Assembly (NCBI GenBank): GCA_021731095.1
Contig: JAKFYA010000033.1
Location: 1-37,526 of the forward strand
Source: Acidobacteriota bacterium
GTDB taxonomy: Bacteria; Acidobacteriota; Vicinamibacteria; Vicinamibacterales; UBA2999
Reading direction: 5' to 3'
DNA: 37,526 nucleotides
Below, piece by piece: positions 10,935 to 26,504 of the stretch. The notes beneath the pieces are model-generated. The model made no database searches. It had not been told where the DNA came from and saw nothing but the letters and a program-made list of their open reading frames with translations. Position 1 is the first letter of the stretch. Every line of letters starts with the position of its first letter. The translations under genes were made by a program, and so were the position numbers.

Positions 10935-11083
10935 CCCCGAACCGGGATCCGTGCCTGTCCGGACGGCCGTCCGGGCGCCGGACGCCCGGCTGAGCCTGGT
11001 GTCGCCAGGCCGTCCGCGCTGACGGTGCTCCGGCGTCCAACCCGTCGGATCAGCGGAAATATCGCGCAATTAGAGGACTCGAG

Positions 11084-11100
11084 CGACACCACTGGTGTCG
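11084..11100. promoter_or_regulatory. 17-bp perfect palindrome CGACACC-ACT-GGTGTCG, 35 nt upstream of the first gene of the 12-gene operon (candidate operator or leader hairpin)
   Basis: Read directly: cgacacc act ggtgtcg at 11084..11100. It is followed by ...caggcGGGAGcactcATG (SD at 11126-11130, ATG at 11136). Confidence 0.3.
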
Positions 11101-11135
11101 GTATCCCACTTGCACAACAGCAGGCGGGAGCACTC

Positions 11136-11840
11136 ATGTCCATCATCCTGGCCCATCGGGGCAATACGAACGGTCCGCATCCGGCAACCGAGAACTCGGC
11201 CACCGCCATCCGCCATGCCCTCTCGCAGGGGTTCGGCATTGAAATCGACATCAGGCGCGACGCGCGTGGGCGCTTCTACGTCTCTCACGACCCCAGGTCC
11301 ACCGCCGATGGCGCGCCGGCCGAGGACGTGATGCGGCTGCTGCGTGCCCACCCGGGTGCCATGGCCGCGATCAACGTGAAGGAGCTGGGCTACGAAGCCG
11401 AGCTGCTGCAGTTCCTCGACGCCCAGGGCGTCCTGGGCCAGGCCTTCCTGTTCGACATGGAGCTCATCGAGCCGCACGCCGGTGAGACGGCGCGACACCT
11501 GCGCATCTTGCACCCGCGTGTGCGACTCGCAGCCCGGGTCAGCGACCGCGGCGAGTCCATCGAGCGCGCGCTGGCCATTCCTTCGGCCAGCATCATCTGG
11601 CTCGACGAGTTTGACGGCGCGTGGGTCACCGAGGCCGACGTGCGACGGCTGAAGCAGGCCGGTCGCCTGGTGATCGCCGTGTCGCCCGAGCTGCACGGCG
11701 CGGGCCCCGAGGCCACAGGCAACCGCTGGGCCGACTTCATGGCGTGGGGCGTCGATGGACTCTGCACGGACTTCCCGTCTGCCTTCTCGCAAGTGGCGGC
11801 CCGGCTGGCGATGCCGGTGTCGTTCCGGGTGGCGGCATGA
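11136..11840 (+). CDS. Glycerophosphodiester phosphodiesterase (GDPD)-family protein, short form
   Basis: ORF-track frame 11025..11840 trimmed to ATG 11136 (GGGAG SD upstream). ILAHRGN...ENS.TAIRHALSQGFGIEIDIRRDARGRFYVSHD matches the GDPD HR..EN..E.D..HD catalytic N-terminus. Confidence 0.75.
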   Translation: MSIILAHRGNTNGPHPATENSATAIRHALSQGFGIEIDIRRDARGRFYVSHDPRSTADGAPAEDVMRLLRAHPGAMAAINVKELGYEAELLQFLDAQGVLGQAFLFDMELIEPHAGETARHLRILHPRVRLAARVSDRGESIERALAIPSASIIWLDEFDGAWVTEADVRRLKQAGRLVIAVSPELHGAGPEATGNRWADFMAWGVDGLCTDFPSAFSQVAARLAMPVSFRVAA

Positions 11841-12190
11841 AGTTGCGCAAGCTCTCTGACATGACCGGCGGCTGGATGGTCGGCAACTTCGACCCTGTCT
11901 GCTACCGCACCGAAGCATGCGAAGTCGCGTGCAAGCACTACCCCGCCGGGGCCCGTGAAGGGGCGCACGTGCACCGCGTCGCCAGTGAACTCACGCTCAT
12001 TGCCGCGGGCCGCGCGCTGATGAATGGCCGCACGCTCGAGGCTGGCGACATCGTCATGCTCGAGCCGGGCGAGGCCGCCGACTTCCAGACGCTGGAGCCG
12101 ACCACCACGGTGGTTGTGAAGATGCCAAGCGTCATGGGCGACAAATTTCCGGTCGACCCCTCGGTCGTCCGACGCGAGGTCACCGCATGA
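11837..12190 (+). CDS. Small cupin-fold protein
   Basis: ATG 11837 overlaps the upstream stop (ATGA). 117 aa. GAREGAHVHRVASELTLIAAGRALMNGRTLEAGDIVMLEPGE is a cupin motif 1/2-like pattern (H.H....E...G......G......GD). Confidence 0.65.
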   Translation: MKLRKLSDMTGGWMVGNFDPVCYRTEACEVACKHYPAGAREGAHVHRVASELTLIAAGRALMNGRTLEAGDIVMLEPGEAADFQTLEPTTTVVVKMPSVMGDKFPVDPSVVRREVTA

Positions 12191-12846
12191 GCCGCATCTC
12201 CGCTGTGCTGTTTGATCTGGATGGTGTGCTGGTCGACGCGACCGAGTGGCACTACGAAGCGCTCAACCGCGCGCTGCGGCTCTTCGGCTTCGACATCACC
12301 CGCTACGAACATCTGTCGGCCTACAACGGCCTGCCCACGAAGAAGAAGCTCGAGATGCTGAGCGTGGAAAAGGGGCTGCCAGCTCCCATCCACGGCATGC
12401 TCAACCGGCTGAAGCAGGTCTACACCCGCGACGAGATTCTGACGCGGTGCCGGCCGGTGTTCGAGAAGGAGTACATGCTCAGCCGGCTGCGCCGAGACGG
12501 CTACCGGCTGGCAGTCTGCTCGAACTCCATCCGCGAGAGCCTCGAGCTGATGGTGCACCAGTCAGGACTCGACCCCTACGTCGAGTTCCTGGTGAGCAAC
12601 GAAGATGTGCGGGCGCCCAAGCCCGACCCGGAAATCTATCGCACGGCCATGGCGCGCATGGGCGTGTCGCCTGCCGAGACGCTGGTGGTCGAGGATGCCC
12701 CGCACGGGGTGGAGGCGGCCCGACGCTCCGGCGCGCATATCTGTCAGGTGTCCGGCTTCACGGAGGTCGACTACTTCCGTGTCCGCACGGCCATTGATCG
12801 CGCCAACGGCGCCCCCGCAACGATTGTCGAAAGGATGGCAGCGTGA
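12187..12846 (+). CDS. HAD-superfamily (subfamily IA) phosphatase/phosphomutase-like hydrolase
   Basis: ATGA overlap with the cupin gene. It has AVLFDLDGVLVD (DxDG motif I), AVCSNS (motif II), K..PDPEIY (motif III Lys) and VVEDAPHGVEAARRSGA (motif IV). Confidence 0.88.
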   Translation: MSRISAVLFDLDGVLVDATEWHYEALNRALRLFGFDITRYEHLSAYNGLPTKKKLEMLSVEKGLPAPIHGMLNRLKQVYTRDEILTRCRPVFEKEYMLSRLRRDGYRLAVCSNSIRESLELMVHQSGLDPYVEFLVSNEDVRAPKPDPEIYRTAMARMGVSPAETLVVEDAPHGVEAARRSGAHICQVSGFTEVDYFRVRTAIDRANGAPATIVERMAA

Positions 12847-13577
12847 TTCACATCGTCGTACCGATGGGCGGTGAAGGCCGCCAGTTCCAGGAACGTGGCT
12901 ACACGTTCCCCAAACCGCTCGTCGAGGTGGCCGGGCAGCCGCTCATCGAGCTGGTCGTCGAAAATCTCACGCCACTCGGCGAGCACCAGTTCGTCTTCGT
13001 GTGCCGCCATGAGCATGTGGAGAAGTACTCGCTCGATCACGTGCTCGAACTGGCCGCCCCGGGTTGCCGTGTGCTGCCGATGCGCCAGCCGACGGCCGGT
13101 GCCCTGTGCAGCGTCCTGCTCGGCATGGAGCATCTCCAGAACGATGACGAGCTGCTGATTGCCAACGCGGACCAGTGGATTGACGAGCCCATCGACAACT
13201 TCCTGTCGGCCGCCCGTCTGGCCAATCTGGACGGTTCCATCATGACCTTCCCGAACACACACCCCCGCTGGTCCTACGTGCGGACCGAGAACGACCTGGT
13301 GGTGACGGTGGCCGAGAAGCAGCCCATCAGCCGGCAGGCCACGGCGGGCCTGTACTACTTCCGCCACGCCTCCGACTTCCTGGACGCGGCCGAACGGATG
13401 CTGCTGAAGAACGCCACCGTCGCGGGCGAGTTCTATGTCGCGCCGGTCTTCAACGAATTCATTCTCGCCGGCAAACGGGTAGGCACGTTCCACCTGGATG
13501 CCTCGCAGATGCACGGCCTCGGCACGCCCGAGGAAGTGGAACGCTTTGCGGCACGCCTCTTCGAGCGGGCCGCGTAA
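12843..13577 (+). CDS. Sugar-phosphate nucleotidyltransferase-like protein (GT-A fold), paralogue 1
   Basis: GTG 12843 overlaps the HAD stop (GTGA). IVVPMGGEGRQFQERGYTFPKPLVEVAGQPLIE is the G-loop/PKPL signature of NTP_transferase enzymes. It also has ...NADQWID, GEFYVAPVFN and a C-terminal HGLGTPEEVERF (like the W.D.GTPE motif). Confidence 0.75.
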   Translation: MIHIVVPMGGEGRQFQERGYTFPKPLVEVAGQPLIELVVENLTPLGEHQFVFVCRHEHVEKYSLDHVLELAAPGCRVLPMRQPTAGALCSVLLGMEHLQNDDELLIANADQWIDEPIDNFLSAARLANLDGSIMTFPNTHPRWSYVRTENDLVVTVAEKQPISRQATAGLYYFRHASDFLDAAERMLLKNATVAGEFYVAPVFNEFILAGKRVGTFHLDASQMHGLGTPEEVERFAARLFERAA

Positions 13578-13588
13578 CCCGGAGTCTC

Positions 13589-14338
13589 ATGCTGAATATC
13601 GTCCTCCCCATCGCCGGGCGCGGCAGCCGCTTTGCTGACGTCGGCTACACCCAGCCGAAGCCGCTCATCCCGGTGCACGGTCTCCCGATGATCGAGGCAG
13701 TGGTCCGCAATGTGCGACCGCATGCCCCGCATCGTTTCATCTTCGTGGCGCTGCGCGCCCATCTCGATCACCTCGGCATGCGCGAGACGCTGGAGCGCTG
13801 CGCACCTGGCTGCGTCATCGTGCCGGTGGACCAGGTCACCGAGGGTGCGGCGTGCACGGTGCTGCTGGCCAAGGCGCTCATCAACTCGGACGACCCGCTG
13901 ATGCTGGCCAACAGCGACCAGTGGGTCGACATCGACATCAACGACTACCTTGGCGAGATGGACCGTCAGCAGGCCGACGGCCTGATCATGACGATGGACG
14001 CTGACGATCCGAAGTGGTCGTTTGTCGGCCTGACGATCGACGGGCTCGTGACGCGCGTGGTCGAGAAGGAAGTGATCTCGAACGAAGCGACAGTCGGCAT
14101 CTACAACTTCCGGCGCGGCGCGGACTTCGTGCGCGCGGCCGAGCAGATGATTGCCGACGACCTCCGTGTGAATGGCGAGTTCTACGTGGCACCGGCCTAC
14201 AACAGTCTGGTCGCCGAAGGCGCCCGCATCGCGGTCTACAACGTGGGCAGCGAGAACGACGGGATGTATGGCCTCGGCATCCCGACAGACCTCGAGCGCT
14301 TCCTGTCCAACCCGCTCTCGCTCAAGGCGGTCGCCTAG
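13589..14338 (+). CDS. Sugar-phosphate nucleotidyltransferase-like protein (GT-A fold), paralogue 2
   Basis: GGAG SD at 13581-13584. IVLPIAGRGSRFADVGYTQPKPLIPVHGLPMIE, NSDQWVD, GEFYVAPAYN and YGLGIPTDLERF align collinearly with the upstream gene over nearly the full length without gaps (roughly 35-45% identity by eye). Confidence 0.75.
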   Translation: MLNIVLPIAGRGSRFADVGYTQPKPLIPVHGLPMIEAVVRNVRPHAPHRFIFVALRAHLDHLGMRETLERCAPGCVIVPVDQVTEGAACTVLLAKALINSDDPLMLANSDQWVDIDINDYLGEMDRQQADGLIMTMDADDPKWSFVGLTIDGLVTRVVEKEVISNEATVGIYNFRRGADFVRAAEQMIADDLRVNGEFYVAPAYNSLVAEGARIAVYNVGSENDGMYGLGIPTDLERFLSNPLSLKAVA

Positions 14339-14340
14339 CC

Positions 14341-15642
14341 ATGTTCACCGTCGCGCCGCACGCTCCGGTCAGCCGCGTCGATGCGGCCACGCTGGCGTCG
14401 GCGCTGGGGGCCCTTCATGCCCGCACCACCACCGTGGTGGGCTGGGGCTCTGGCAGCGTGTTCGACTACTTCCAGCGGCTGCATCCGGTCAGGCTGGACT
14501 ATCTGGTCGACAGTGATGCCACCCGGTGGGGCTCGTCCCGACTCGGCGTGACGATTCATGCGCCACAACGCCTGCTGGCCGAGGTGGAGGCCACCACGCT
14601 CGTGGTGATTTACTCCTCTGCCTGGCCGGCCATCCAGCAACAACTGGCTCGCCTCGGGCACTTCCTGGCCGTGCCCGCCAGTGCCCTCTTTGCCGACGCC
14701 GCGACACACGCGCGGCTTGAGCACCTCGATTCACTCGGTGCGCAGACGCCGACGCGGCGCGTGCCCACCTCGCGGGACGCCGTCGTCGTGCAAGGACCGG
14801 TGGTGCCAGGCATGACGGAGCGAGTGCTGCGGGCGCTGTCAGCGCTCCACACCAGGAACCGGATCGTGCTGTCAACCTGGGCCGGAACGGACGGGTCGCT
14901 CCTCGACGCGGTGCGCGGCTATGTGGACGACCTGGTGCTGTCGGACGCACCAGCCACGGCAGGCATCCAGAACCGCAACTACCAGCTGGTGTCGACGCGC
15001 GCCGGAGTCGCCCGCGCGATGGCGGCTGGGGCGACCACCATCCTGAAGACCCGCACCGACCTGGCCGTGCTCGCCCCGGCAGTCTTTGACCAGGCGCGCT
15101 GGTGGCTGGCCCGCGCGGGCAGCGATGCCTCGCGCGCGACAGGCCTGTCCGGTCGCCTCATCGTTCCGGCCAGCTACACGCGGAAGTATCTGCTGTATCA
15201 CCCCTCGGACATGGTGATGCTGGGCGCCGCTGAGGACATGGCGCGCTTCTGGAGCGCGCCGCTCGACCCGCGCGACGGAGATCTGCTGACGCCCGAGTGG
15301 CTGCAGCAACCGCTGGCCTCCGTGAATCTGGCGGGCAACCCGGCCGAGAGCTATCTCGGCCTGGCGTTCTGCCGCTCGCTCGGCCGACCGGTCGTGGGTA
15401 CGCTGCGCGACAGCTGGTCGTTCTACCGCGACCTGTTCGCCGTGGTCGACAACGACTGGTTCGACCTGCTCTGGCTGAAGAACCTCTCCATTCCCGATGC
15501 GGCCCTGCGGAGTGGCGTGCGCCAGACCATTGGCCAGCAGTTCTGGACCCGCCTCCAGATGCACGACGCCGCACTCGAAGCCGAACTTGATGCCGTCGAT
15601 CCTGCGTCCCTCTCGCTCGGCGCCCTGGCAGGTGCGGCGTGA
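14341..15642 (+). CDS. Two-domain enzyme: N-terminal NeuD/PglD-N-like Rossmann module + WavE-like (LPS/glycan synthesis) domain
   Basis: ORF-track frame 14014..15642 trimmed to ATG 14341, 2 nt after the upstream stop (the upstream extension overlaps the previous gene). The N-terminus reads VVGWGSGSVFDYF...LDYLVDSDATRWGSS. The remainder (IVLSTWAG.D....., ...ILKTRTDL..., YHPSDMVMLG) resembles my memory of the WavE family. The family call is from recall, not a search. Confidence 0.55.
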   Translation: MFTVAPHAPVSRVDAATLASALGALHARTTTVVGWGSGSVFDYFQRLHPVRLDYLVDSDATRWGSSRLGVTIHAPQRLLAEVEATTLVVIYSSAWPAIQQQLARLGHFLAVPASALFADAATHARLEHLDSLGAQTPTRRVPTSRDAVVVQGPVVPGMTERVLRALSALHTRNRIVLSTWAGTDGSLLDAVRGYVDDLVLSDAPATAGIQNRNYQLVSTRAGVARAMAAGATTILKTRTDLAVLAPAVFDQARWWLARAGSDASRATGLSGRLIVPASYTRKYLLYHPSDMVMLGAAEDMARFWSAPLDPRDGDLLTPEWLQQPLASVNLAGNPAESYLGLAFCRSLGRPVVGTLRDSWSFYRDLFAVVDNDWFDLLWLKNLSIPDAALRSGVRQTIGQQFWTRLQMHDAALEAELDAVDPASLSLGALAGAA

Positions 15643-16244
15643 CCCGCACCGTAGCCACCACGCCGCACGCCCTGCCACTGGTGGCGCGGCGTGGCCTGTG
15701 GGACAAGTTTGCCGGGCCAGGCTCTGCCGAGGCCATCACGCGGGGGTACCGGCGCGGCGTCGCCAGCATCCTGGGGTGCGCGGAGGGTGCGTCACTTCAG
15801 GAGCTCGCCACGCTGGTTGGCAACCCGGTGGTCAACCCCACGCGGCAGCCGCTGTATCTCATGGTCGAGTCCCTGCCCACACACACGACGCCGTTGCGGC
15901 ATCTGGCCGGCTGCGGCGTCGAGACCTTTGCCGTGACCAATGGCATCGAGGGCGGAGCATGGCCGCTTTACCGCTGGACCGGCAACGCCTGGACGCTCGC
16001 GGGTCGCTATGTGCCAGCGTCGATGGCCGGTCACACGCTGAGCACCGCAGACTTCTCGGACGCGGACTATGCACAGCAGGTGGTGTTGACCGAGGCCGCG
16101 AATGTGTCCGGACCCGAGGATGACGCCGCCGACGCCGAACGGCTGGGTGCCCTGCGCGTGCTGGCAGGCCCGCACGCCGTCTTCGTTCGGGTGAGTGACT
16201 TCGTGGAGTTCGACCTGCTCGTGCGGCAGCAGAGGGCAGCCTGA
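15639..16244 (+). CDS. Hypothetical protein (no recognisable motifs)
   Basis: 201-aa ORF whose GTG start overlaps the upstream stop (GTGA). It sits inside the coupled operon, has coding-like composition and no TM segment. Confidence 0.55.
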   Translation: MTRTVATTPHALPLVARRGLWDKFAGPGSAEAITRGYRRGVASILGCAEGASLQELATLVGNPVVNPTRQPLYLMVESLPTHTTPLRHLAGCGVETFAVTNGIEGGAWPLYRWTGNAWTLAGRYVPASMAGHTLSTADFSDADYAQQVVLTEAANVSGPEDDAADAERLGALRVLAGPHAVFVRVSDFVEFDLLVRQQRAA

Positions 16245-16246
16245 GC

Positions 16247-18190
16247 ATGGCCCTGCACGAGCTGCCACGGTTCCGTCGCGCCTCCGATCTGCCGAGCGGC
16301 GCCGCCCTGCGTCAGGCGCTGCAGCCGCATCTGTCGACGCTGGCCGCCACGCCCTGGACCTACTGTGGCTATACGCCGCTGCCAGACCTGCACGGCGTGC
16401 GCCCCTCACTGGACCTGACGATGACGGTCGACAACCAGACCGTCCTGACACAGGCCTGCGGGTTTGAACGGCAGACAGCGGTGGTCACGGCAGGCCTCCG
16501 CGCCTCGCGCTTCGCGCCTGTGCTGTGCTGGGAGGTGCTGCACACGCTGGCCCCCGGCGGACTCTGGATTGATGTGGACGTCGACAGCCGGTGCCGGGGG
16601 ACGGCCCTCACGCCGCTCGATTTTCCGGCGCGCGACTACGCACGCCTCTGCCTGACGGCGGAATCGCAGCAGGTCGCTGGGGCGGTGCGCACCACGGTCT
16701 GGCGCAAGCATGCCGCCTCTCCTCTGGCCGCGCACGCCGGGGACGCAGGTTGGACCTTCGGCATCCTGACCGCCGGCGACTCGCCGCGCGCAGCCCGGAT
16801 GGCCCGAGCCCTGCTGGCGCTGGACCTTCCGGCGGTGGAAGTCATCTTCTGCGGACCGCGTCCGAACGACGCGCCCTCGGACCCGCGCGTGCGCGCCATC
16901 GACCTCGACACGCCGGAGCCGCGCGGGTGGATTACGCGGAAGAAGAACCTGCTGGCCACGGCGGCCCGCCACGAGCGGCTATGCCTGCTGCACGACCGCT
17001 ATGAGGTCACGCCTGCCTGGGCCCGCGCGCTCGGCACACTGGGCTCCAGCCTGTCCGTGGCGACCTTCCCGCAGGTCTGGCTGGCCGATGTGGACGGACG
17101 CTTCCCGCAGCGGTACGCCGACTATCAGGTGCTGAGGCAGGATCAGGCGCTCGCCGAGGCCAGGAACGGCAGGCTCTACGCCGGCGACCGCGTGTTCTAT
17201 GCGCCCTACGACGACTTTGCAGAGACGGCGTTCATCTGCGGGGGCCTGTATGCCACCACGCGCACGGTCTGGACGCTGGTGGGACAAGACGACACGCTCT
17301 ATCACGGCGAATGGGAGGATGTGTCCTTCGGCCTCGACTGCCAGCGCGCGGGCATTCCGCACCGCGTCAGCCTGGCCATGACCGTCGAATCGGTCAACCC
17401 GCACCCGATGGCGCTCACGCGCATCCATGATCTGGTGGCGCCGGACGTGCCGACGCCCGGCCGCTTCCACGTGTCGGCTGCCCAACTGGAGACCGCGAAG
17501 CGCGAGCCGTGGCGGTTCAAGCCGCTGTTCACCACGTCACGCCACGCCTACTACACTCGCGTGCTCGCCCGTCTGAATCGGGTGCCCGGCCTGGACGCGT
17601 CGCTCGGCCTCGGTGCGGTCGCGAACTGCACGGGACTGGCGGACTTCTGGCGTGTCATTGACGCTTTCGTCCGGCGACAGCCGCTGGCCACGCGCGAGGC
17701 GCAGGCCGGCGTGCTCCACTTCCTGTCGGACACGATCTACAACTGGCCCAACGGCGAACTGCTGCAGTGGCTCGCCGCCAACGAACGGGCGCGCGCCGCT
17801 CAGGACCTGCCCGCTGGAGGCACCCTCGTTGGCTGGGGCACGGGTGCTCAGTTCCGGGCTCTCCACACCTCGCTCGACCGCCCGCTCGACTTCGTCGTGG
17901 ACAGTGACGCGACCCGCTGGGGCACCACCATCGAAGGCTGCACCGTCCGATCGCCAGAGATCCTGGCCACGCTTGATCCCTCACGTACGGTGATCGTGGT
18001 GTTCTCAGCCTTCCGTGACGAGATTCGCGCCGCGGCCCGCGCGTTCGGCGATTTCCGCGTGGTGGCCGCTCCGGACGTGGCCACGTTGCGCCCGTTCCAT
18101 CCGCTTACCGACATGGTGGCCCACTTCGAGGAAGTGGAGCACTGCTATCCGGTCACCTTCCACGCAGACACCCTTGAGGCCGCAGCATGA
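16247..18190 (+). CDS. Three-part protein: degenerate methyltransferase-like N-region, GT-A-like glycosyltransferase core, C-terminal NeuD/PglD-N-like Rossmann module
   Basis: 647 aa, ATG 2 nt after the upstream stop. The N-region has VLHTLAPGGLWIDVD (like MTase post-motif LKPGG) but no GxGxG. The centre reads WTFGILTAGDSP...VEVIFCG...GWITRKKNLLATAARHERLCLLHDRYEV...GEWEDVSFGLDCQRAGI (GT-A-like: beta1, acidic HD/DxD-like, ED helix). The C-terminus reads LVGWGTGAQF...LDFVVDSDATRWGTT. Confidence 0.5.
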   Translation: MALHELPRFRRASDLPSGAALRQALQPHLSTLAATPWTYCGYTPLPDLHGVRPSLDLTMTVDNQTVLTQACGFERQTAVVTAGLRASRFAPVLCWEVLHTLAPGGLWIDVDVDSRCRGTALTPLDFPARDYARLCLTAESQQVAGAVRTTVWRKHAASPLAAHAGDAGWTFGILTAGDSPRAARMARALLALDLPAVEVIFCGPRPNDAPSDPRVRAIDLDTPEPRGWITRKKNLLATAARHERLCLLHDRYEVTPAWARALGTLGSSLSVATFPQVWLADVDGRFPQRYADYQVLRQDQALAEARNGRLYAGDRVFYAPYDDFAETAFICGGLYATTRTVWTLVGQDDTLYHGEWEDVSFGLDCQRAGIPHRVSLAMTVESVNPHPMALTRIHDLVAPDVPTPGRFHVSAAQLETAKREPWRFKPLFTTSRHAYYTRVLARLNRVPGLDASLGLGAVANCTGLADFWRVIDAFVRRQPLATREAQAGVLHFLSDTIYNWPNGELLQWLAANERARAAQDLPAGGTLVGWGTGAQFRALHTSLDRPLDFVVDSDATRWGTTIEGCTVRSPEILATLDPSRTVIVVFSAFRDEIRAAARAFGDFRVVAAPDVATLRPFHPLTDMVAHFEEVEHCYPVTFHADTLEAAA

Positions 18191-19506
18191 GCAGCGGAAC
18201 GCTTCGCTATCTCGCCATGGAGCGCGAGTTCTACGCCGACCTGGTCGCCCGCTCCGACTACTCGGACGAGCGCTTCACCGAGCAGGACTCTGCCGAGCTG
18301 ATCGTCGGCAGCTATGCCCAGCATGAGCGATTCGACTACGAGCGCTGGCTGTGCGGCGGGCTGGCCATCTATCCCGGCGCTGTGGCGCTGGAGTTCGGGT
18401 GCGGCCCCGGCCGGATGCTGCGGCGGATGGCGCCCCACTTCTCGCGCGTCGATGGTGTGGACATTTCGCCTGATGTCCTTGATGTCGCGCACCGCAGGTG
18501 CGCCGAGTTGGCCAACCGGCCCCGTCTGTGGGCCATTGACGGCCAGCATCTGCCGCGCGAACTGGCCTCCGCCTATGACGTGGCCTTCTCGGTCATCTGT
18601 CTGCAGCACATTGCGGTGCATAGCGTGCGCCGGCGCATCTTCGCGGAGCTGTTCCGCGCGCTCAAGCCCGGTGGCGTGCTGACCTTCCAGATGGGCTATG
18701 GCCCCGGTCATGCGGCGATGGTCGACTACTACGCCGACTATGTCGATGCGGCCGGCACCAACGGCGAGGCGGATGTGACCGTGCTCCACCCCGGCGAGAT
18801 TGGGGAGGACCTGAAGCAGGCCGGCTTCGGCCCCATGGCCTATGCCCTCACCCCAACCGGCCCCGGCGACACGCACGGGGCCTGGATCTTCGTGCGCACC
18901 ATGAAGCCCGGACCCGTGAGGGCGCGCGTGAGCACGTCCCCCGCTGGCTGGAGCGCAGTGGGCTTCGAACCGCTGGAGCTGGACACGGACGCGCTGTGGG
19001 ACGCGCGCCGTCGCCAGCTCGAGCATGGCACCCTGGCCCGTTTCCGCAGCCGCACGCAGGAGCTGCAGGCGGCTGAGGCACGGGTGGCTGTGGCCGAGGC
19101 ACACGTGACCGCAGCGAACGTCGGTCGCCAACAGGACCTGGAGGTGCGCAACGCGCAGCTGGCCCGCCTGCAGGCGCTCGACGCGCCGCGACTCCACGCC
19201 CTGATGTCAGACCTCGCGACCTGGGCCGGCGACACGCGCCACGTCGCCATCCTCGGCTCAGGCGCTCAGACCGAGTGGCTGCTCGGCGAGACGCCGCTGG
19301 GTCTGCTGGGTCACCTCTCGATCATCGACAACAACCCGGCAGCCGTGGGACGCCTCGTGGGCGGCCTGCCGGTCAAGGGTGGCCATGAACTTGCACAACT
19401 GGCACCTGACGCGGTGGTGCTCACCTCACTCAGTCATCAGAACGAGATGGCGGCGTTTGTCGAAGGCCTCAGTCTGGCCGGCACTCGCCTTGTCCGTTGC
19501 TACTAA
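18187..19506 (+). CDS. Class I SAM-dependent methyltransferase fused to a coiled-coil linker and a C-terminal Rossmann-like module
   Basis: ATGA overlap with the upstream gene. It has ALEFGCGPGRMLRRMA (motif I), VDGVDIS (motif II acidic), DVAFSVICLQHI and LKPGGVLTF. Residues ~270-340 are heptad-like (ELQAAEARVAVAEAHV...LEVRNAQLARLQAL). The C-terminus reads HVAILGSGAQTEWLL...LSIIDNNPAAVGRLVGGLPV. Confidence 0.82.
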   Translation: MSSGTLRYLAMEREFYADLVARSDYSDERFTEQDSAELIVGSYAQHERFDYERWLCGGLAIYPGAVALEFGCGPGRMLRRMAPHFSRVDGVDISPDVLDVAHRRCAELANRPRLWAIDGQHLPRELASAYDVAFSVICLQHIAVHSVRRRIFAELFRALKPGGVLTFQMGYGPGHAAMVDYYADYVDAAGTNGEADVTVLHPGEIGEDLKQAGFGPMAYALTPTGPGDTHGAWIFVRTMKPGPVRARVSTSPAGWSAVGFEPLELDTDALWDARRRQLEHGTLARFRSRTQELQAAEARVAVAEAHVTAANVGRQQDLEVRNAQLARLQALDAPRLHALMSDLATWAGDTRHVAILGSGAQTEWLLGETPLGLLGHLSIIDNNPAAVGRLVGGLPVKGGHELAQLAPDAVVLTSLSHQNEMAAFVEGLSLAGTRLVRCY

Positions 19507-19531
19507 CAACCGGTTATCTGGAGATCTGCTG

Positions 19532-21325
19532 ATGTCCGCTTCGCCCGCTTCCTCTGTCCGCGTCATCGAGCGCGACGGTTATGCCCTGACGAACCACCGG
19601 GCGCTCTGTCGGCGCGCCGTCCTCTGGATCGGCCAGACGTGCAACCTGCGTTGCCACTTCTGCTACTTCCTCGACAAGATCACCGACCGGAACCACCCTG
19701 AGCATGACTTCCTGCCGCTCGACAAGCTGAAGGCGATGTGCAAGACGCTCGTCGATGTGTATGGCAACAACGCGGTGGACATTCAGGGTGGCGAGCCGAC
19801 GCTCTACCGCCATCTCGTGCCGCTGCTGCAGTACTGCAACGAAATTGGCCTGAAGCCGACGCTCATCACCAATGGCCAGGTGCTGGCCAATCCGGACCGG
19901 GTGAAGCAGTTGCAGGACGCCGGTGTCTACGACCTGCTCATCAGCGTGCACGGCCTGGGCAAGCGCTATGACCGCATTGTCGTGGTGGATGGCGCAGCCG
20001 AGAAACTTCGCAAGGGCATCGACAACGTGGCGGCGGCTGGCGTGCCGTTCCGACTGAACTGCGTCCTGGCGACCGAAGCCTTGCCTGACCTGCTGGGCGT
20101 GGCGAAGCTGGCCGTCGCCAAGGGCGCACGCGCGGTGAACTTCATCGCCTTCAACCCGTTCGTCGACCAGGCCTGTGGTGGCAAGCGCAGCGCGGAGAAC
20201 GTGCCGCGCTACAGCGAGGTGGTGGAGCACCTCCTGCCAGCCATCGACCTGCTGGACGCGAACGGCATCGAGGTGAACGTCCGGTACCTCCCGATGTGCC
20301 TCTTCCCCGAGCGATATCGGAAGTTCCTCCAGAACTTCCAGCAGATCGTGTACGACCTGCACGAATGGGAGAGCGCCGGCGAGGCCTGGTCGAGCCAGGC
20401 TCCACAGCGCGAGGCGGCGGCGCCGCTGAGCGAGCCGGTCGACTTCTTCCGCTACATCGAGTCACTGCGGTTGCGCGGCTTCGCCGACCTGCTGCCCGAG
20501 CTGGCCGACAACCGCCACTGGAGCCCCTCGGTGGGTACCACGCTTGACGCGCTCGAGGCGCTGGTGCGCGCGGCAGGGCGGCCGATTACGGTCAGCCTCT
20601 ATGGCAGCGCCGCCGTGGCCCAGTCGCTCATGCAGGCGGCACGCTCTCGCGAAGCGCTGCTGGATGGTCTGGTCTTCTCCGCCCTGATCTCTTCGCCCGA
20701 GTACCGGACGGCTGACACCCATCTGGGCCTGCGGTGGGAGTCGCCGGACTGGCTGGCGGCGAACCCGACGGACGTGGTGGTGAACACCTCGGAAAGCTCG
20801 CGCCGCATCATCACGCGGGCGTTGGCTGAGCGTGGTCTGGGTGGCCGCACGGTCGAAGTGTTCGGCGAGTTGGGCAAGACGGCGCTCCCGGCGTCCACGG
20901 AGACCCATCCGATTCTCCGCTTCCAGGGACGGCAGGGCTACGAGTACACCCACTACCTGCCCGAACTGGGACCGTTCGAGTCGACCGGTGTGCTGGAGGA
21001 GGCCTACAAGGAGTTCCGCGTGCTGATGGCCAAGACCATCCACCCCTACTCGAAGGGATCGGCCTGCGGCGACTGTTCACTGAAGGGCATCTGCGACGGC
21101 TTTCACAAGGACTACGCCGAGATCTTCGGCTTCGATGAGGCGAAGACGGTCACGCTGAGCAGCCAGGTCTACGACCCGTGCCACTACTCGAACGACCAGC
21201 TCAAGGTGGTCGAGGCACAGGAGTACGACTGGGCCCTTCCCGAAACGCACCCGCTGGCGCAGCAGGCGCGGGCGGCAAAGGGTGAGACCGCGGCGATGGC
21301 GGTGCGCGCGGGCGGGAGAATGTAA
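19532..21325 (+). CDS. Radical SAM enzyme with long non-canonical C-terminal extension (internal Rossmann-like module + terminal Cys-rich motif)
   Basis: ORF-track frame 19379..21325 trimmed to ATG 19532 (TGGAGA upstream). It has CNLRCHFC (CxxxCxxC, nt 19639-19662), GGEPTL (SAM glycine motif), the TIM-barrel-like LITNG.., and NFIAFNP. Residues ~350-445 read ITVSLYGSAAVAQSL...VVVNTSESS. Near the C-terminus is ACGDCSLKGICDGF (nt ~21064-21096). Confidence 0.85.
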   Translation: MSASPASSVRVIERDGYALTNHRALCRRAVLWIGQTCNLRCHFCYFLDKITDRNHPEHDFLPLDKLKAMCKTLVDVYGNNAVDIQGGEPTLYRHLVPLLQYCNEIGLKPTLITNGQVLANPDRVKQLQDAGVYDLLISVHGLGKRYDRIVVVDGAAEKLRKGIDNVAAAGVPFRLNCVLATEALPDLLGVAKLAVAKGARAVNFIAFNPFVDQACGGKRSAENVPRYSEVVEHLLPAIDLLDANGIEVNVRYLPMCLFPERYRKFLQNFQQIVYDLHEWESAGEAWSSQAPQREAAAPLSEPVDFFRYIESLRLRGFADLLPELADNRHWSPSVGTTLDALEALVRAAGRPITVSLYGSAAVAQSLMQAARSREALLDGLVFSALISSPEYRTADTHLGLRWESPDWLAANPTDVVVNTSESSRRIITRALAERGLGGRTVEVFGELGKTALPASTETHPILRFQGRQGYEYTHYLPELGPFESTGVLEEAYKEFRVLMAKTIHPYSKGSACGDCSLKGICDGFHKDYAEIFGFDEAKTVTLSSQVYDPCHYSNDQLKVVEAQEYDWALPETHPLAQQARAAKGETAAMAVRAGGRM

Positions 21326-23478
21326 TGGCCGCGCCGCGTCGCGTCCTGTACTTCGCCGAGAATGCGCTGAGTGCCATCCAGGGTGGTGGCATCGTGGCCT
21401 ATGCCGTGCTGAAGGGATTGCCGGCTGACCATCTGCTTGGCTTCTTCGAGTACCGCAACATCACGCCGGTACCGGAGTATGCGGAGCGCTTTGTCCACCT
21501 GGGACAGGCCTGGCGCGCGCCCCGTGCGCTGGCGCGGGTGAACCGGTGGACCCGCGGCCTGACGGCCGACCTGCTGAAGCGCCTGTGGCCCGATGCGCAC
21601 GTGGCGCAGGATCTGGCGTTCGTGCAGGCGCAGGTGGCCTCGCGGGCGTTCACGCCGGACGTGGTGTACTTCGCGGGCCTGTCCTACCGCTATCTGCGGC
21701 TGGCCGTCATGGCCGCCGAGCACTACGGCGTGCCGATGGTGCAACTGAACATGGACGACTGGATGCAGGTGGAGACCGAGGCGGCTGGCCGCTTCGGTGG
21801 GCGCTGGTCGCGCCTCATCACCCGCGAACTGACCCGCGCCTCTGCGGCCTCCCTCGTGAGCACCAGCAACTCGCCGCGACTGGCCGCCAGGCTCTCGGCC
21901 ATGACCGGCCACCAGCATGTTGCGGCCAACAACTGTTGCGATGACCTGATGGCGCATGCCACGGACACGGCGGTCGAGCCGAGTCCCGTCCCGGTGATCA
22001 CCTACGCAGGGGCCATGAACGTGAACCTCCAGGGCGAAACCCTGAAGGTGCTGGCCAGTGCAGTGGCCGAGCTGAATGCCGAAGGCACGCCCGTCCACCT
22101 GCACATCTACACGCCGTGGGAGTTCGCACCGCTTGCCAACAGCATTGCGGTGCCTGGCGCCGTGTTCTACAAGGGGCAGGTGGGGCGCGCAGCACTGGCA
22201 GACATCTACCGCGCTTCGGACTTCCTGGCCACCACGGTGACCTACCGCGAGAAGCACATCTCGCTCTTCCGGCACTCGCTCTCGACCAAGCTGTCCGAGT
22301 ACCTGTGCGCCGGCAAGCCGGTGCTGTCGATGGGTCACTACGACTGGCATCTGCACGAGTACGTGCAGGAACACGGATGTGGCTTCTCGGTGCTGATGGA
22401 CGAGGCCTTTTCCAGGGCCGCCATCAAAGCGCAGCTTCGCCAGATTCTGGCAACGGACCCGGCGTTGCTCGCCACCATGGGTCAGCGAAACCGCGCACTC
22501 TGGGAGCGGGCGCACGACGTCGCCCGCATGGCGCGCGAGACGCGCCAGGCGCTACGGCTGACGGTGGAGGCCGCACCCCGTGAGCGCGATACGCGCCGCG
22601 GCGTGATCTGGATGGGCGAGGCCACCGGACGAGCCTGGGTGCCCGCCGCAAAGGCCATGGCCATCGCACGCCAGTTGCGCGATGTCTACCATCACCAGGC
22701 GGTGGATCTGGTGGGCACGGGCGTCATGGCCCACCCCGCCATCGCCGACGTGCAAGGCTATTGCACCGACATCGGTCTGTCGCCGTCCGTAGTGGACGCC
22801 GAGGTCGCGGATCCCCTCGACCTGCGGTACGAGCCGGCCGGGTCACGCTGGTCACTGGCCGACGCGCAGCGACATCCGACGGCGTCGCTCACGACGCCGC
22901 CCGACGTCTTTGCCCAGGTGGCCGACCTGCGCAACGAGGTGCCCCGCACCACACCAGCGGCGCGTGCCGTCCAGGCCCTGTCCGTCCGCGTGTCCGAGTT
23001 TGCCACCAGGAAGCCGGTGGTGTGGGCCTATGGCGACACCACGGCTGGCCACGACGTGCTGTCCGCCATCGCTGCGCACCCGTGGCTGGGCCACGCCGTG
23101 CGGATTGGCGGCTTCCTGGCTGAACCCCACGCGGGTGGCACCGACATCCTGCACGGACGCACACTGCGCAGTCTTGATCGGCTCATGCCGGACGATGCCG
23201 ACGTGGTCTTCATCACCGACGATGCCGCTCGACTGGCACGGATGGAGGAGCTGTCGCGCCACGGTCTCCTGGGTCGCACCGTTCCGCTGTTCGGCACCTC
23301 GGCCGACCAGCCGCCCTACGAACGTCACCCTCTTGGGCCGGGCCAGACCTTCGGTGAAGGCCTGACGGCCCTGGACTACGCCACACGCGAGCTGGCCGCC
23401 AGAACGCGCCCGAAGGCCATTGGCTGGACCGACGACGGGTTCGACGAGGAACGCGAACCCCTTCGACGAGTCGGCTAG
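21325..23478 (+). CDS. GT-B fold glycosyltransferase (GT4-like) fused to a ~300-aa C-terminal region containing Rossmann-like module(s)
   Basis: The ATG shares its A with the upstream TAA (TAATG). The N-terminal ~410 aa read RVLYFAENALSAIQGGGIV..., ITYAGAM...., FRHSLSTKLSEYLCAGKPVLS (E-x7-E-like sugar-donor motif). The C-terminal part includes PVVWAYGDTTAGHDVL...IGGFLAEPHAGGTDILHGRTL...ADVVFITDD. Confidence 0.75.
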   Translation: MAAPRRVLYFAENALSAIQGGGIVAYAVLKGLPADHLLGFFEYRNITPVPEYAERFVHLGQAWRAPRALARVNRWTRGLTADLLKRLWPDAHVAQDLAFVQAQVASRAFTPDVVYFAGLSYRYLRLAVMAAEHYGVPMVQLNMDDWMQVETEAAGRFGGRWSRLITRELTRASAASLVSTSNSPRLAARLSAMTGHQHVAANNCCDDLMAHATDTAVEPSPVPVITYAGAMNVNLQGETLKVLASAVAELNAEGTPVHLHIYTPWEFAPLANSIAVPGAVFYKGQVGRAALADIYRASDFLATTVTYREKHISLFRHSLSTKLSEYLCAGKPVLSMGHYDWHLHEYVQEHGCGFSVLMDEAFSRAAIKAQLRQILATDPALLATMGQRNRALWERAHDVARMARETRQALRLTVEAAPRERDTRRGVIWMGEATGRAWVPAAKAMAIARQLRDVYHHQAVDLVGTGVMAHPAIADVQGYCTDIGLSPSVVDAEVADPLDLRYEPAGSRWSLADAQRHPTASLTTPPDVFAQVADLRNEVPRTTPAARAVQALSVRVSEFATRKPVVWAYGDTTAGHDVLSAIAAHPWLGHAVRIGGFLAEPHAGGTDILHGRTLRSLDRLMPDDADVVFITDDAARLARMEELSRHGLLGRTVPLFGTSADQPPYERHPLGPGQTFGEGLTALDYATRELAARTRPKAIGWTDDGFDEEREPLRRVG

Positions 23479-24606: not shown

Positions 24607-25482
24607 TCAGCCTTCGAGCGGCGTCCAGCGGCCGTTGCCGAACCTGAAGCGGGTCTCCCGGGCGGTGAAGCCATTGACCGGCGGATAGAGCGGGTCCCCG
24701 GGCAGGGCCAGGAGCTTGCCGCCCTCCTCTTCTTCGACCTCGAACAGCCGCGGCTGCACCATCCAGCGGTGCGGGCCCGCGGCCCAGGCCAGAGCCTCCT
24801 CGACGGTCGCCCACTGCTCCAGCCAGCGCAGCGTGGTCCAGGTGGGCGGCGCCAGCAGCACCTCGCCGCGGCGGCAGCCGTCCAGCGCATCACCCGGTCG
24901 CATCCAGACAGCCTCGGTGGTCTCCCCGTCGTCGCGCAGCGGCTCCTGCCCGTCGGGCGCGAGCGCCATGAAGAAGCGGACGTCATACCGCTTCGTCTCG
25001 CTCTCCGGCGTCACCCAGTGGCCGAATGGCAGCAGCGCCGCCAGATTGAAGCGCAGATGCTCCCGCGCCGCAAACCCCTCAAGCGTGGTCTGGCCGTCGG
25101 CGATACGGCCGCGTGCCGCCACCCGATGCGCCTCGTCTGGCAGACGCCAGCCAGATGCCGGCTCGGCCAGCAGCAGGCCGGTTTCCTCGAATAGCTCGCG
25201 GATGGCACCAACCGCGTGTGCCACCGCGTCTACGGACGGCAGGTCGTGGGCCAGACGGGCCGCCACGACATCAAGTCCGGTGCAGCAGCGGGCCGGCTCC
25301 GCCAGCCTGTCGGTCGGGTCGAGGCGTCCTCCGGGAAACACGCTGGCGCCGCCCATGAAAGCCACCTCGTCGTGGCGGCGGACCAGACACACCTCGACGC
25401 CGGCGGTGGCGGGGCGCACGAGCACGACGGTGGAGGCGGGACGGGGCGTACGGACGGTCATGGCTGGAGGCGCGCCTTTCAC
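24607..25482 (-). CDS. NUDIX-family hydrolase
   Basis: 291-aa ORF. It has FPGGRLDP.... and the GAIRELFEETGLLL Nudix box (REx2EExGU). The start is either GTG 25482 (GTGA overlap with the upstream protease stop) or ATG 25461. Confidence 0.8.
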   Translation of the reverse strand: MKGAPPAMTVRTPRPASTVVLVRPATAGVEVCLVRRHDEVAFMGGASVFPGGRLDPTDRLAEPARCCTGLDVVAARLAHDLPSVDAVAHAVGAIRELFEETGLLLAEPASGWRLPDEAHRVAARGRIADGQTTLEGFAAREHLRFNLAALLPFGHWVTPESETKRYDVRFFMALAPDGQEPLRDDGETTEAVWMRPGDALDGCRRGEVLLAPPTWTTLRWLEQWATVEEALAWAAGPHRWMVQPRLFEVEEEEGGKLLALPGDPLYPPVNGFTARETRFRFGNGRWTPLEG

Positions 25483-26504
25483 GCGCGCCGGCGACGGGCG
25501 TGGCGCAGGCCGATCAGCCCGGTGCCCAGCAGGGCGAGTGTTGCGGGCTCGGGGACAGGCTGCGGCGCGTTGGCGTCGATCCAGTCGGCGAACTGCGACA
25601 CGCGCGTGTCACCGGCGAACTCGCCCCAGGACGAGTTGAGGCCGCCGTAGGTGTCACCGCAGATGGCGCCGCTCGTCGACCCCCACGAGTGGACGCCGGC
25701 GATGAGGCCGTTGATGAACAGGGCGCCTCCAGAGTCTCCGGGGGCAGTCATGCCCTCACCAGTCACACCTGCCTGTGGCATGCCGTAGCAGAGACCGAAC
25801 GGGTCGATCGCCGGGGCGAAGCCGGGGTTGTCGAAATCAAAGGCCAGCGAGGTCATGCCGAAAAACGGAGAGGTCGGACCGAAACCCCAGAACCCGTCGA
25901 CCACGTTGTTCACGACACGCCGGCTGCCGCTCGGGGCACCCGTGAGGCCGGTGCCATTGCCGGGGCGCCCATAGCCGGCCAGCGTGACGGCCTGGCCCTC
26001 TTCATCGGTGTCGCGATAGATGTCGTACCGCGCCACGCCCGCGACCTCGGCGGGGAGCTGCAGCAGGGCAAGGTCGCGCGGGTCGTTTGCGATGCCGCTG
26101 TAGCCGGGAAACAGGAGGGCCGTGGTGGTGGTGAACAGCTGCGTGGTCGTTCCGAAGAACCCGACCTGGGCACTGAGGCCAAGCGCAATCATGTCGTCCA
26201 CGCAGTGGCCGGCTGTGAGGATGGAGAAGCCGTTCATCAGCAGCGAGCCCGAGCACGACGAGTCCCCGGCGTTGCCGTAGATGTGGTCGTTGCCAAGGTC
26301 GATGAGAATCCGCACCACGCCGTCCAGCACGCTGGTGCCATTCAGCGACGGACCGGTGCCACTGGCCGCGTTGATGGCGATGGACGGCTCGACGACCGCG
26401 TCCGGGTCGAGGATGAAGGGCTCAGCGGAGGCCAGGCGAGGCATGGCCAGGGCCACGAGGCCACAGAGACAGAGGGCGACGAACAGACGCGGGAACCGGC
26501 GCAT
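25479..26504 (-). CDS. Secreted trypsin-like (S1) serine protease with C-terminal PEP-CTERM sorting signal
   Basis: Signal peptide MRRFPRLFVALCLCGLVALAMPRLASA. Catalytic triad contexts: LTAGHC (His), DLALLQL (Asp), GDSGGAL (Ser). The C-terminus VPEPATLALLGTGLIGLRHARRRRA is PEP + TM helix + Arg cluster. Confidence 0.88.
   Translation of the reverse strand: MRRFPRLFVALCLCGLVALAMPRLASAEPFILDPDAVVEPSIAINAASGTGPSLNGTSVLDGVVRILIDLGNDHIYGNAGDSSCSGSLLMNGFSILTAGHCVDDMIALGLSAQVGFFGTTTQLFTTTTALLFPGYSGIANDPRDLALLQLPAEVAGVARYDIYRDTDEEGQAVTLAGYGRPGNGTGLTGAPSGSRRVVNNVVDGFWGFGPTSPFFGMTSLAFDFDNPGFAPAIDPFGLCYGMPQAGVTGEGMTAPGDSGGALFINGLIAGVHSWGSTSGAICGDTYGGLNSSWGEFAGDTRVSQFADWIDANAPQPVPEPATLALLGTGLIGLRHARRRRA

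Follow-up and report, generated by a model that had tools for sequence, protein, structure and literature searches.

The stretch of DNA analysed here, hereafter the window, comprises 37,526 nucleotides of contig JAKFYA010000033.1 (assembly GCA_021731095.1) from an Acidobacteriota bacterium. The region of interest in it is one tightly packed operon on the plus strand, in which neighbouring genes overlap or are separated by at most 25 nt, and five of its products carry a copy of the same small domain, here called the module. These products are the WavE-like protein A, protein B, the class I S-adenosylmethionine (SAM) methyltransferase C, the radical SAM enzyme D and protein E, of which the N-terminal part resembles a glycosyltransferase (GT) of the GT-B type (Table 1). 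The module is a Rossmann-like accessory domain of about 100-110 amino acids (aa) that occurs in three sequence types, designated A/B, C and D/E. A sequence-only reading of this DNA had pointed out five such segments, and all of them sit where it had put them, with domain limits that were derived anew.

Table 1. Modules, module-bearing genes and further genes of the operon, with the evidence for each assignment
Feature	Position (nt)	Strand	Evidence or remark
Module A, A/B type, aa 13-122 of the WavE-like protein	14377..14706	+	Local profile matches
Module B, A/B type, aa 508-617 of protein B	17768..18097	+	BLASTP to module A
Module C, C type, aa 328-439, extreme C-terminus of the methyltransferase	19168..19503	+	hhalign to A/B and D/E profiles
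Module D, D/E type, aa 333-449	20528..20878	+	AlphaFold2 model, Foldseek; absent from most D homologues
Module E, D/E type, aa 542-661 of the GT-B fusion protein	22948..23307	+	BLASTP to D, local profile match
C-terminal half of E, aa 423-670, contains module E	22591..23334	+	BLASTP to D
Gene A, WavE-like, 433 aa	14341..15642	+	Pfam WavE, E 6e-13, aa 148-308
Gene U, 201 aa, module-free	15639..16244	+	Matches no known family; kept across the cluster
Gene B, 647 aa	16247..18190	+	Catalytic fold without assignment by Pfam, NCBIfam or PDB sequence search
Gene C, class I SAM methyltransferase, 439 aa	18187..19506	+	Pfam Methyltransf_25, E 1e-17, aa 68-163
Gene D, radical SAM enzyme, 597 aa, CNLRCHFC motif	19532..21325	+	Pfam Radical_SAM, E 6e-19
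Gene E, 717 aa, N-terminal ~415 aa GT-B-like	21325..23478	+	Glyco_trans_1_4 in orthologues
Upstream genes of the same operon	11025..14338	+	Pfam/NCBIfam, PDB 4evw
GDPD-like protein	11025-11840	+	Pfam/NCBIfam
Small open reading frame between the GDPD-like and HAD genes		+	Cupin-like by eye; Pfam and NCBIfam without match
Haloacid dehalogenase (HAD), beta-phosphoglucomutase family	12187-12846	+	Pfam/NCBIfam
Sugar-1-phosphate nucleotidylyltransferase-like, first	12843-13577	+	Pfam/NCBIfam
Sugar-1-phosphate nucleotidylyltransferase-like, second	13589-14338	+	Pfam/NCBIfam

Module A is located N-terminal to the WavE catalytic region, and the Pfam WavE model begins only at aa 148. Module B precedes a conserved C-terminal tail of ~30 aa (…HFEEVEHCYPVTF), and module D separates the radical SAM core from the Cys-rich C-terminal region. 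An alignment of 28 module sequences revealed a shared pattern consisting of a helix, beta1 with a Gly loop, a helix, beta2, G…G-x-h-h-x-x-P-x-x-L, a D-x-V-V strand, a helix, G and a last strand. The Gly-rich loop after beta1 reads GWG[ST]G in the A/B type and GAGxHT (GAGxxT) in the C type, and the acidic end of beta2 reads VD[SN][DN] and FD[NS][DN], respectively; at the same positions the D/E type has YG[SD], followed by [IL]SS or AE. The combination of G-x-G and an acidic strand, which the sequence-only reading had ascribed to all five segments, is present in the A/B and C types and not in the D/E type. In local searches none of the three module profiles matched a further open reading frame (ORF) of the window; gene U and the adjacent K+ channel with its TrkA_N Rossmann domain were among the sequences covered. 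Hydropathy analysis revealed no membrane-helix-like hydrophobic stretch in any protein of the operon, which points to soluble proteins; the maximum over 19 residues stayed below 1.6 for A-E, compared with 2.41 in the K+ channel control.

For two of the module-bearing proteins the catalytic assignment requires comment. Pfam, NCBIfam and PDB sequence searches with protein B, in the case of Pfam extended to four of its orthologues, named no fold; the sole hint is a weak GT2 match in the orthologue from locus L001 (E 0.024), and the earlier label 'GT-A-like' for B could not be verified. The GT-B label of E rests on Glyco_trans_1_4 matches in the orthologues P0037 and P0072 and in the protein from locus L002, and the window protein E itself gave no Pfam match. 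An exact-sequence lookup of protein D returned no record.

Relatedness and fold of the modules

BLASTP among six proteins linked A31-113 to B526-608 (36% identity, E 1e-12) and D279-461 to E502-670 (28% identity, E 1e-10), and gave no link from C to any other. Module profiles were made from related loci (12 A/B-type, 7 C-type and 15 D/E-type sequences), which came from a genome scan anchored on D that yielded 56 loci. The same cluster is found in the Acidobacteriota loci L001, L002, L003 and L050, and a variant of it in the Desulfuromonadales locus L005. The loci from Acidobacteriota metagenome-assembled genomes (MAGs) are the nearest, D being 60-76% identical there. In the closest one, L003 (MFD03975.bin.2.76), the orthologues of all five module-bearing genes show several apparent frameshifts, which probably stem from errors in long-read assembly and not from pseudogene formation, and the L003 fragments were excluded from the final alignments.

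Comparison of the A/B with the C profile by hhalign gave a probability of 95% and a score of 50, against a mean of 10.6 (sd 2.1, maximum 19.5) for 100 column shuffles. Probability and score were the same for C versus D/E (100 column shuffles: mean 11.4, sd 2.5), so that both scores lie 15-19 SD over their column-shuffled controls. The A/B and D/E profiles aligned with a score of 22 (z 4.8), which exceeds all 100 column shuffles. Taken together, the shuffled controls had means of 10.6-11.4, sd of 2.1-2.5 and maxima of 17-19.5, and reversed alignments scored 10-13. One register applied to all three comparisons, giving a single consistent 28-sequence alignment. This confirms that all five modules are homologous and that C is the bridging type; as the sequence-only reading had proposed, A and B are clearly homologous and C to E are more diverged yet related.

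It might be argued that the likeness of C, D and E reflects high-GC composition and a generic beta-alpha-beta periodicity, or that the segment is a routine part of each family, given that BLAST left C unlinked and that no Pfam family reached its threshold on the window segments. However, the column-shuffled and reversed controls fall far below the real alignments, the profiles include locus L005 with 55% GC, and all three types share the same top PDB match. Moreover, two independent structure models have the same fold, and module-less orthologues exist for A, B, D and E. Within the tests run this explanation is refuted, and we regard it as extremely improbable.

The relation between D and E extends beyond the module. 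Besides the match of E502-670 to D279-461, E423-490 matched D26-112, and the window protein E is without ~145 aa of the D-like domain. The orthologue of E in locus L002 (L002:11837-15370) still contains the D-like domain in full (30% identity over 559 aa, E 1e-50). The CxxxCxxC motif is absent in the full-length D-like domains of both the L002 and the L050 orthologues of E. E is thus a GT-B protein fused to a decayed radical-SAM paralogue of D that is cysteine-less and internally deleted. As the C-terminal half of E is this paralogue, its module was inherited from D. There are indeed five carriers, as had been claimed, but the independence of five fusions to unrelated enzymes was overstated, the module of E having come with the paralogue of D.

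The combined profile of the 28 sequences matched PDB 3nkl (E 1.4e-9), the soluble N-terminal domain of a WbpM/PglF-like 'UDP-D-quinovosamine 4-dehydrogenase', and more weakly Rex, an MtmC-type C-methyltransferase, the FkbM structure 2py6 and a PglD-like protein. Each of the types alone also had 3nkl as its top PDB match (C type, E 5.7e-5; A/B, 0.046; D/E, 0.046). Word-indexed homologue searches brought up only short fragments from metagenomes (11 of the A type, one D-type and one E-type), which were used as rows in the alignments for structure prediction. AlphaFold2 models were obtained for modules A and D and were compared through their shared PDB matches in Foldseek. The model of A (predicted local distance difference test, pLDDT, 91.6) has a beta-alpha-beta pattern, and that of D (pLDDT 91.2) has the same order of strands and helices. 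With the A model, Foldseek ranked 3nkl first (E 5.8e-4), followed by Rex, by MtmC/KijD1/TcaB9 and by the N-domains of VioB, PglB-ATD, WeeI and PerB; 4rvd (TM-score for the query, TMq, 0.62), 5t6b and 4e2z were matched in the C-domain of TcaB9, MtmC and KijD1, and 7txp, 4m99, 4m9c and 4ea7 at probabilities of 0.95-1.0. The D model matched 2g6t, Rex, biliverdin reductase, 3nkl at rank 15 (E 5.5e-3, probability 1.0) and other NAD(P) Rossmann domains. Its best structural match, the uncharacterised Clostridium acetobutylicum protein 2g6t (E 7e-4, TMq 0.64), was also seen weakly in the profile search of the PDB.

Pfam and NCBIfam searches with the full proteins and the excised segments left the modules unmatched, save for a sub-threshold match of window module C to Methyltransf_14 (PF08484; 14.1-14.2 bits, E 0.04, against a gathering threshold of 23.5 bits). 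Relatives do reach this threshold, for instance the B12-binding radical SAM protein of L050 with 23.9 bits. Among the 28 module sequences Methyltransf_14 matched nine (best E 3.7e-6) and was the only Pfam family with repeated matches; PglD_N (PF17836) matched one of them weakly (E 0.13), and PF13727 was absent from the families matched at E up to 10. The PglD_N/NeuD class that had been expected from Pfam was not returned for the window segments. In the broad sense the assignment to the NeuD/PglD-N type stands, in view of the matches of the A model to the N-domains of VioB, PglB-ATD, WeeI and PerB, with 3nkl as the best one. C, D and E are not unrelated folds either, as indicated by their shared top PDB match and by the common fold of the A and D models. 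The module is a diverged and largely unannotated branch of a known class of small Rossmann-like domains in nucleotide-sugar enzymes, which includes the accessory domain of unknown function (DUF) of WbaP and PglF (3nkl), the N-domain of the PglD/VioB type and the C-domain of sugar C-methyltransferases; the fold itself is not new.

Occurrence, gain and loss of the module

Whether the module belongs to its host enzymes can be judged from homologues that lack it. In ~49 of the 56 loci the homologue of D is ~415 aa long and is without the part corresponding to about aa 305-490 of D (Sorangium, proteobacterial MAGs and others). This short, module-less form of D is widespread, occurring for example as one copy per genome in many Sorangium (L018-L026, L029, L053), where the rest of the cluster is absent. 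The clusters L007 and L008, from two Thermoanaerobaculia MAGs, have homologues of A, B, D and E that are all module-free; these clusters contain the same enzyme set (homologues of the nucleotidylyltransferase-like NT1 and NT2 and of A, U, B, D and E) with zero modules and form a natural module-less control. Their B homologues keep both flanks of the module, W…ERA upstream and …YF-x-EVE-x-CYPV-x-F downstream. A divergent module hidden in the tails of these B homologues was considered and rejected: profile searches with E values up to 100 gave no match, and the tails could be aligned to the flanks of the window module. Because the L007 and L008 homologues keep the sequence on both sides, the module in B is an insertion, and so is the module in D. 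The earlier description of module B as a C-terminal fusion is correct as to its place near the C-terminus, and has to be modified in that conserved sequence is present on both sides. The module does not belong to the routine make-up of these enzyme families, as follows from the module-less homologues of A, B, D and E and from the start of the Pfam WavE model after module A. Since module-less Thermoanaerobaculia orthologues exist, the catalytic domains do not need the module.

A module-bearing D was found in seven of the 56 loci; these seven span Acidobacteriota, Desulfuromonadales, a 'Cyanobacteria' UBA MAG and Verrucomicrobia. Other module genes were present within 10 kb in six of these seven, and in none of the 49 loci with a module-less D, so that the co-occurrence looked for on the basis of the sequence-only reading was indeed observed. 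With the A-type module as anchor, 31 loci were retrieved from metagenomes, eight of which extend more than ~1.5 kb beyond the anchor ORF. Seven of these eight contain further module genes (L064, L065, L067, L072, L073, L074 and L076); the eighth, L058, has none, and its contig ends 1.7 kb past the anchor. The full A-B-C-D-E array is repeated in L064 and L067. The modules are inherited together as sets, and their presence across the cluster is close to all-or-none.

The occurrence of the module outside these clusters was surveyed with HMMER, using a profile of the five window modules against 1.84 billion representative proteins. Matches were obtained in 807 clusters at E ≤ 0.001 and in 36 at E ≤ 1e-10. 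Among the 85 full-length top matches, the partner or overlapping Pfam families were WavE (23), Methyltransf_14 (21, with E down to 1.8e-35), class I methyltransferases (about 14), GT1/GT4 (8), CoA_binding (7), GT2 (6), FkbM (5) and Radical_SAM (5). The architectures include four modules followed by a cytidylyltransferase, a GT4 followed by several modules, a methyltransferase with a TagF-like domain and a module, and radical SAM proteins with modules. Tandem modules, in 2-4 copies, occur in many database proteins (P0027, P0052, P0138, P0032, P0059). In the related loci the C and D/E types are also found on B12-binding radical SAM enzymes and on a GT4. Across phyla every host family retains a module type of its own, so that the fusions are old. 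The module is therefore not peculiar to this pathway: the 807 representative clusters place it on WavE, methyltransferase, GT-A, GT-B, FkbM and radical SAM proteins, where Pfam partly calls it Methyltransf_14 or CoA_binding. No description of this cluster or arrangement was found in the literature covered, which was incomplete and hence gives weak evidence of absence. Already known are the domain class and its recurring fusion to these enzyme classes in databases; new are the concentration of the copies in one operon and their co-inheritance, including two insertions and one copy on a pseudo-radical-SAM domain.

The same data bear on the possibility that the module binds another ADP-containing cofactor, such as NAD(H), CoA or SAM/adenosine, and acts as a sensor of redox state or of a metabolite, with no relation to the sugar nucleotide. 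Structures of the Rex family and NAD(P) Rossmann domains are among the best structural matches of both models, CoA_binding (PF02629) matches one of the 28 module sequences (E 2.4e-4) in addition to the seven database proteins mentioned above, and SAM is used by two of the five host enzymes. However, the module does not reach the length of a complete dinucleotide-binding Rossmann domain, its closest sequence relatives, 3nkl and Methyltransf_14, come from nucleoside diphosphate (NDP)-sugar enzymes, and the partner domains in the databases are overwhelmingly those of glycan-pathway enzymes. A cofactor sensor of this kind is therefore considered improbable.

As to the remaining genes, NT1 matches PDB 4evw (E 3.5e-20). 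In the Desulfuromonadales locus (L005:6603-8861) a homologue of U is fused directly after a B12-binding radical SAM domain with a C-type module, which suggests that U works with module-bearing enzymes. Downstream of the operon, two adjacent ORFs of ~1215 aa each are present on the plus strand (26612-30253 and 30250-33906). An ORF on the minus strand (25479-26504) ends in a C-terminal motif, PEPATLALLGTGLIGL…RRRRA, that is PEP-CTERM-like by eye, and may encode a secreted protease.

Possible role of the modules and comparison with known relatives

We lean somewhat towards the view that the modules are nucleotide-binding or nucleotide-sensing accessory domains, possibly dimerising, on every tailoring enzyme of one NDP-sugar pathway. 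In such a pathway the operon would first make an NDP-activated sugar by means of the HAD protein of the beta-phosphoglucomutase type and the two sugar-1-phosphate nucleotidylyltransferases. The WavE-like protein, protein B, the methyltransferase, the radical SAM enzyme and the GT-B would then act, with one module each. Each module would bind or sense a nucleotide, either as part of the NDP-linked substrate common to these enzymes or in the NMP or NDP by-product, and it may also dimerise. The N-domain of VioB anchors dTDP: Gly8 and Gly11 pack on its ribose and beta-phosphate, the ribose is also bound by Asp32, the thymine by the Asn33 backbone and the pyrophosphate by the Gly67 amide (PMC9271549). 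The alignment places the GxG loop and the D-[SN]-[DN] that are conserved in the A/B and C types at positions equivalent to these VioB contacts (PMC9271549). Nucleotide binding by the A/B and C types is plausible in the light of the Gly-rich beta1 loop and the D-[SN]-[DN] that they have kept.

Several observations weigh against this view. The D/E type is without both canonical nucleotide-contact motifs in the alignment; nucleotide binding by this type is doubtful, and it may have a structural or partner-binding role. PF13727 and PF17836 stay below threshold on every one of the 28 module sequences, and CoA or NAD can likewise be the ligand of Rossmann-like domains of such a size, as the Rex and CoA_binding matches illustrate. 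The Fisher p of 2e-7 for the co-occurrence of modules ignores the kinship among the loci. Finally, the module-less orthologues are no less compatible with a regulatory or assembly role than with a substrate handle. Both the Gly-rich loop and the acidic beta2 end have been lost in the D/E type, so that it cannot be taken for granted that all five modules share a nucleotide handle; as a proposal this remains plausible for the A/B and C types.

Alternatively, the modules could be mainly protein-protein docking or oligomerisation domains that join the five soluble enzymes into a metabolon, with ligand binding absent or secondary. Such a role would suit the nearly all-or-none presence of modules across the cluster, the strong conservation of the D/E type despite its lost nucleotide motifs and the 2-4 tandem modules in many database proteins, as expected of a self-pairing unit; moreover, the homologous DUF of WbaP gives most of the dimer contacts of that protein (PMC10942596). 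Against it, the positions of ligand contact in VioB (PMC9271549) are occupied in the A/B and C types by an invariant Gly-rich loop and Asp, and the L005 homologue of E is module-free while other enzymes there have a module. Docking as the main function is in our opinion rather unlikely, yet the module-less clusters and the degenerate D/E type make it a serious competitor, and a stronger one than the binding of CoA, NAD or SAM. The ligand-handle and the docking role each have an experimental precedent in relatives (PMC9271549, PMC10942596).

More tentatively, the modules might form a pathway-wide set that is gained or lost as a whole. It might represent a recognition element for a nucleotide handle, by which chemically unrelated tailoring enzymes (WavE-like, methyltransferase, radical SAM, B12-radical SAM and GT-A/B) would hold the same NDP-linked intermediate, as a glycan-pathway counterpart of the recognition element (RRE) of ribosomally synthesised and post-translationally modified peptides (RiPPs), or else matching docking tags for a soluble multi-enzyme complex, in which the degenerate D/E type would act as an adaptor. 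If the modules are a handle or an assembly device, they would provide a sequence marker for enzymes working on the same nucleotide-linked intermediate, including B and U. The question why WbaP-type transferases and PglF-type dehydratases share a nucleotide-sensing domain (PMC10942596) would then extend to a whole soluble pathway. Even with a mundane function, domain boundaries would be available for an under-annotated subfamily of about 800 representative clusters, many with 2-4 tandem copies, and the module-less orthologous clusters of Thermoanaerobaculia can serve as a natural control for experiments.

Of the known systems, the DUF of WbaP and PglF (PF13727, 3nkl) is the best match in both sequence and structure (profile E 1.4e-9; Foldseek rank 1 for A). 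Its GxGxxG-like loop and D-rich end of beta2 recur here, in the A/B and C types only, and in both cases a non-catalytic domain is found on functionally unrelated glycan enzymes. The DUF of WbaP binds UMP, UDP and UTP and has been assigned a nucleotide-sensing regulatory role; it is common to PglF-type dehydratases, and its presence in unrelated enzymes was called puzzling by the authors (PMC10942596). The DUF follows a bundle of four transmembrane helices in membrane proteins, whereas the window proteins are soluble, the PF13727 model matches none of the module sequences, and the window has five copies in one operon. The N-domain of PglD, NeuD, VioB and PerB (PF17836) has a fold similar to that of the A model, and the known domain holds the nucleotide of an NDP-sugar by means of a Gly-loop and an Asp (PMC9271549). 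Unlike these proteins, A-E contain no left-handed beta-helix or hexapeptide family found by Pfam, and the partners here are WavE, methyltransferase, radical SAM and GT-B domains.

The C-domain of the NDP-sugar C-methyltransferases TcaB9, MtmC and KijD1 (PF08484) follows a SAM methyltransferase domain, as module C does, although window module C stays below the PF08484 cut-off (14 versus 23.5 bits). In these enzymes the C-domain has a role in the binding of the dTDP-sugar. Rex and CoA_binding domains resemble the module in fold as well as in size, and they are among the high-ranking matches of both models. Rex, however, has a DNA-binding domain and binds NAD(H), whereas nothing in the operon suggests redox sensing; no winged helix-turn-helix or CoA ligase domain was found in A-E by Pfam. 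RREs of the PqqD-like kind are small non-catalytic domains that occur on unrelated tailoring enzymes of one cluster and recognise a shared substrate handle. With these the modules have a functional analogy only, in that one small domain is likewise present on several unrelated enzymes of one gene cluster, the RRE differing in having an unrelated fold and a peptide as its ligand.

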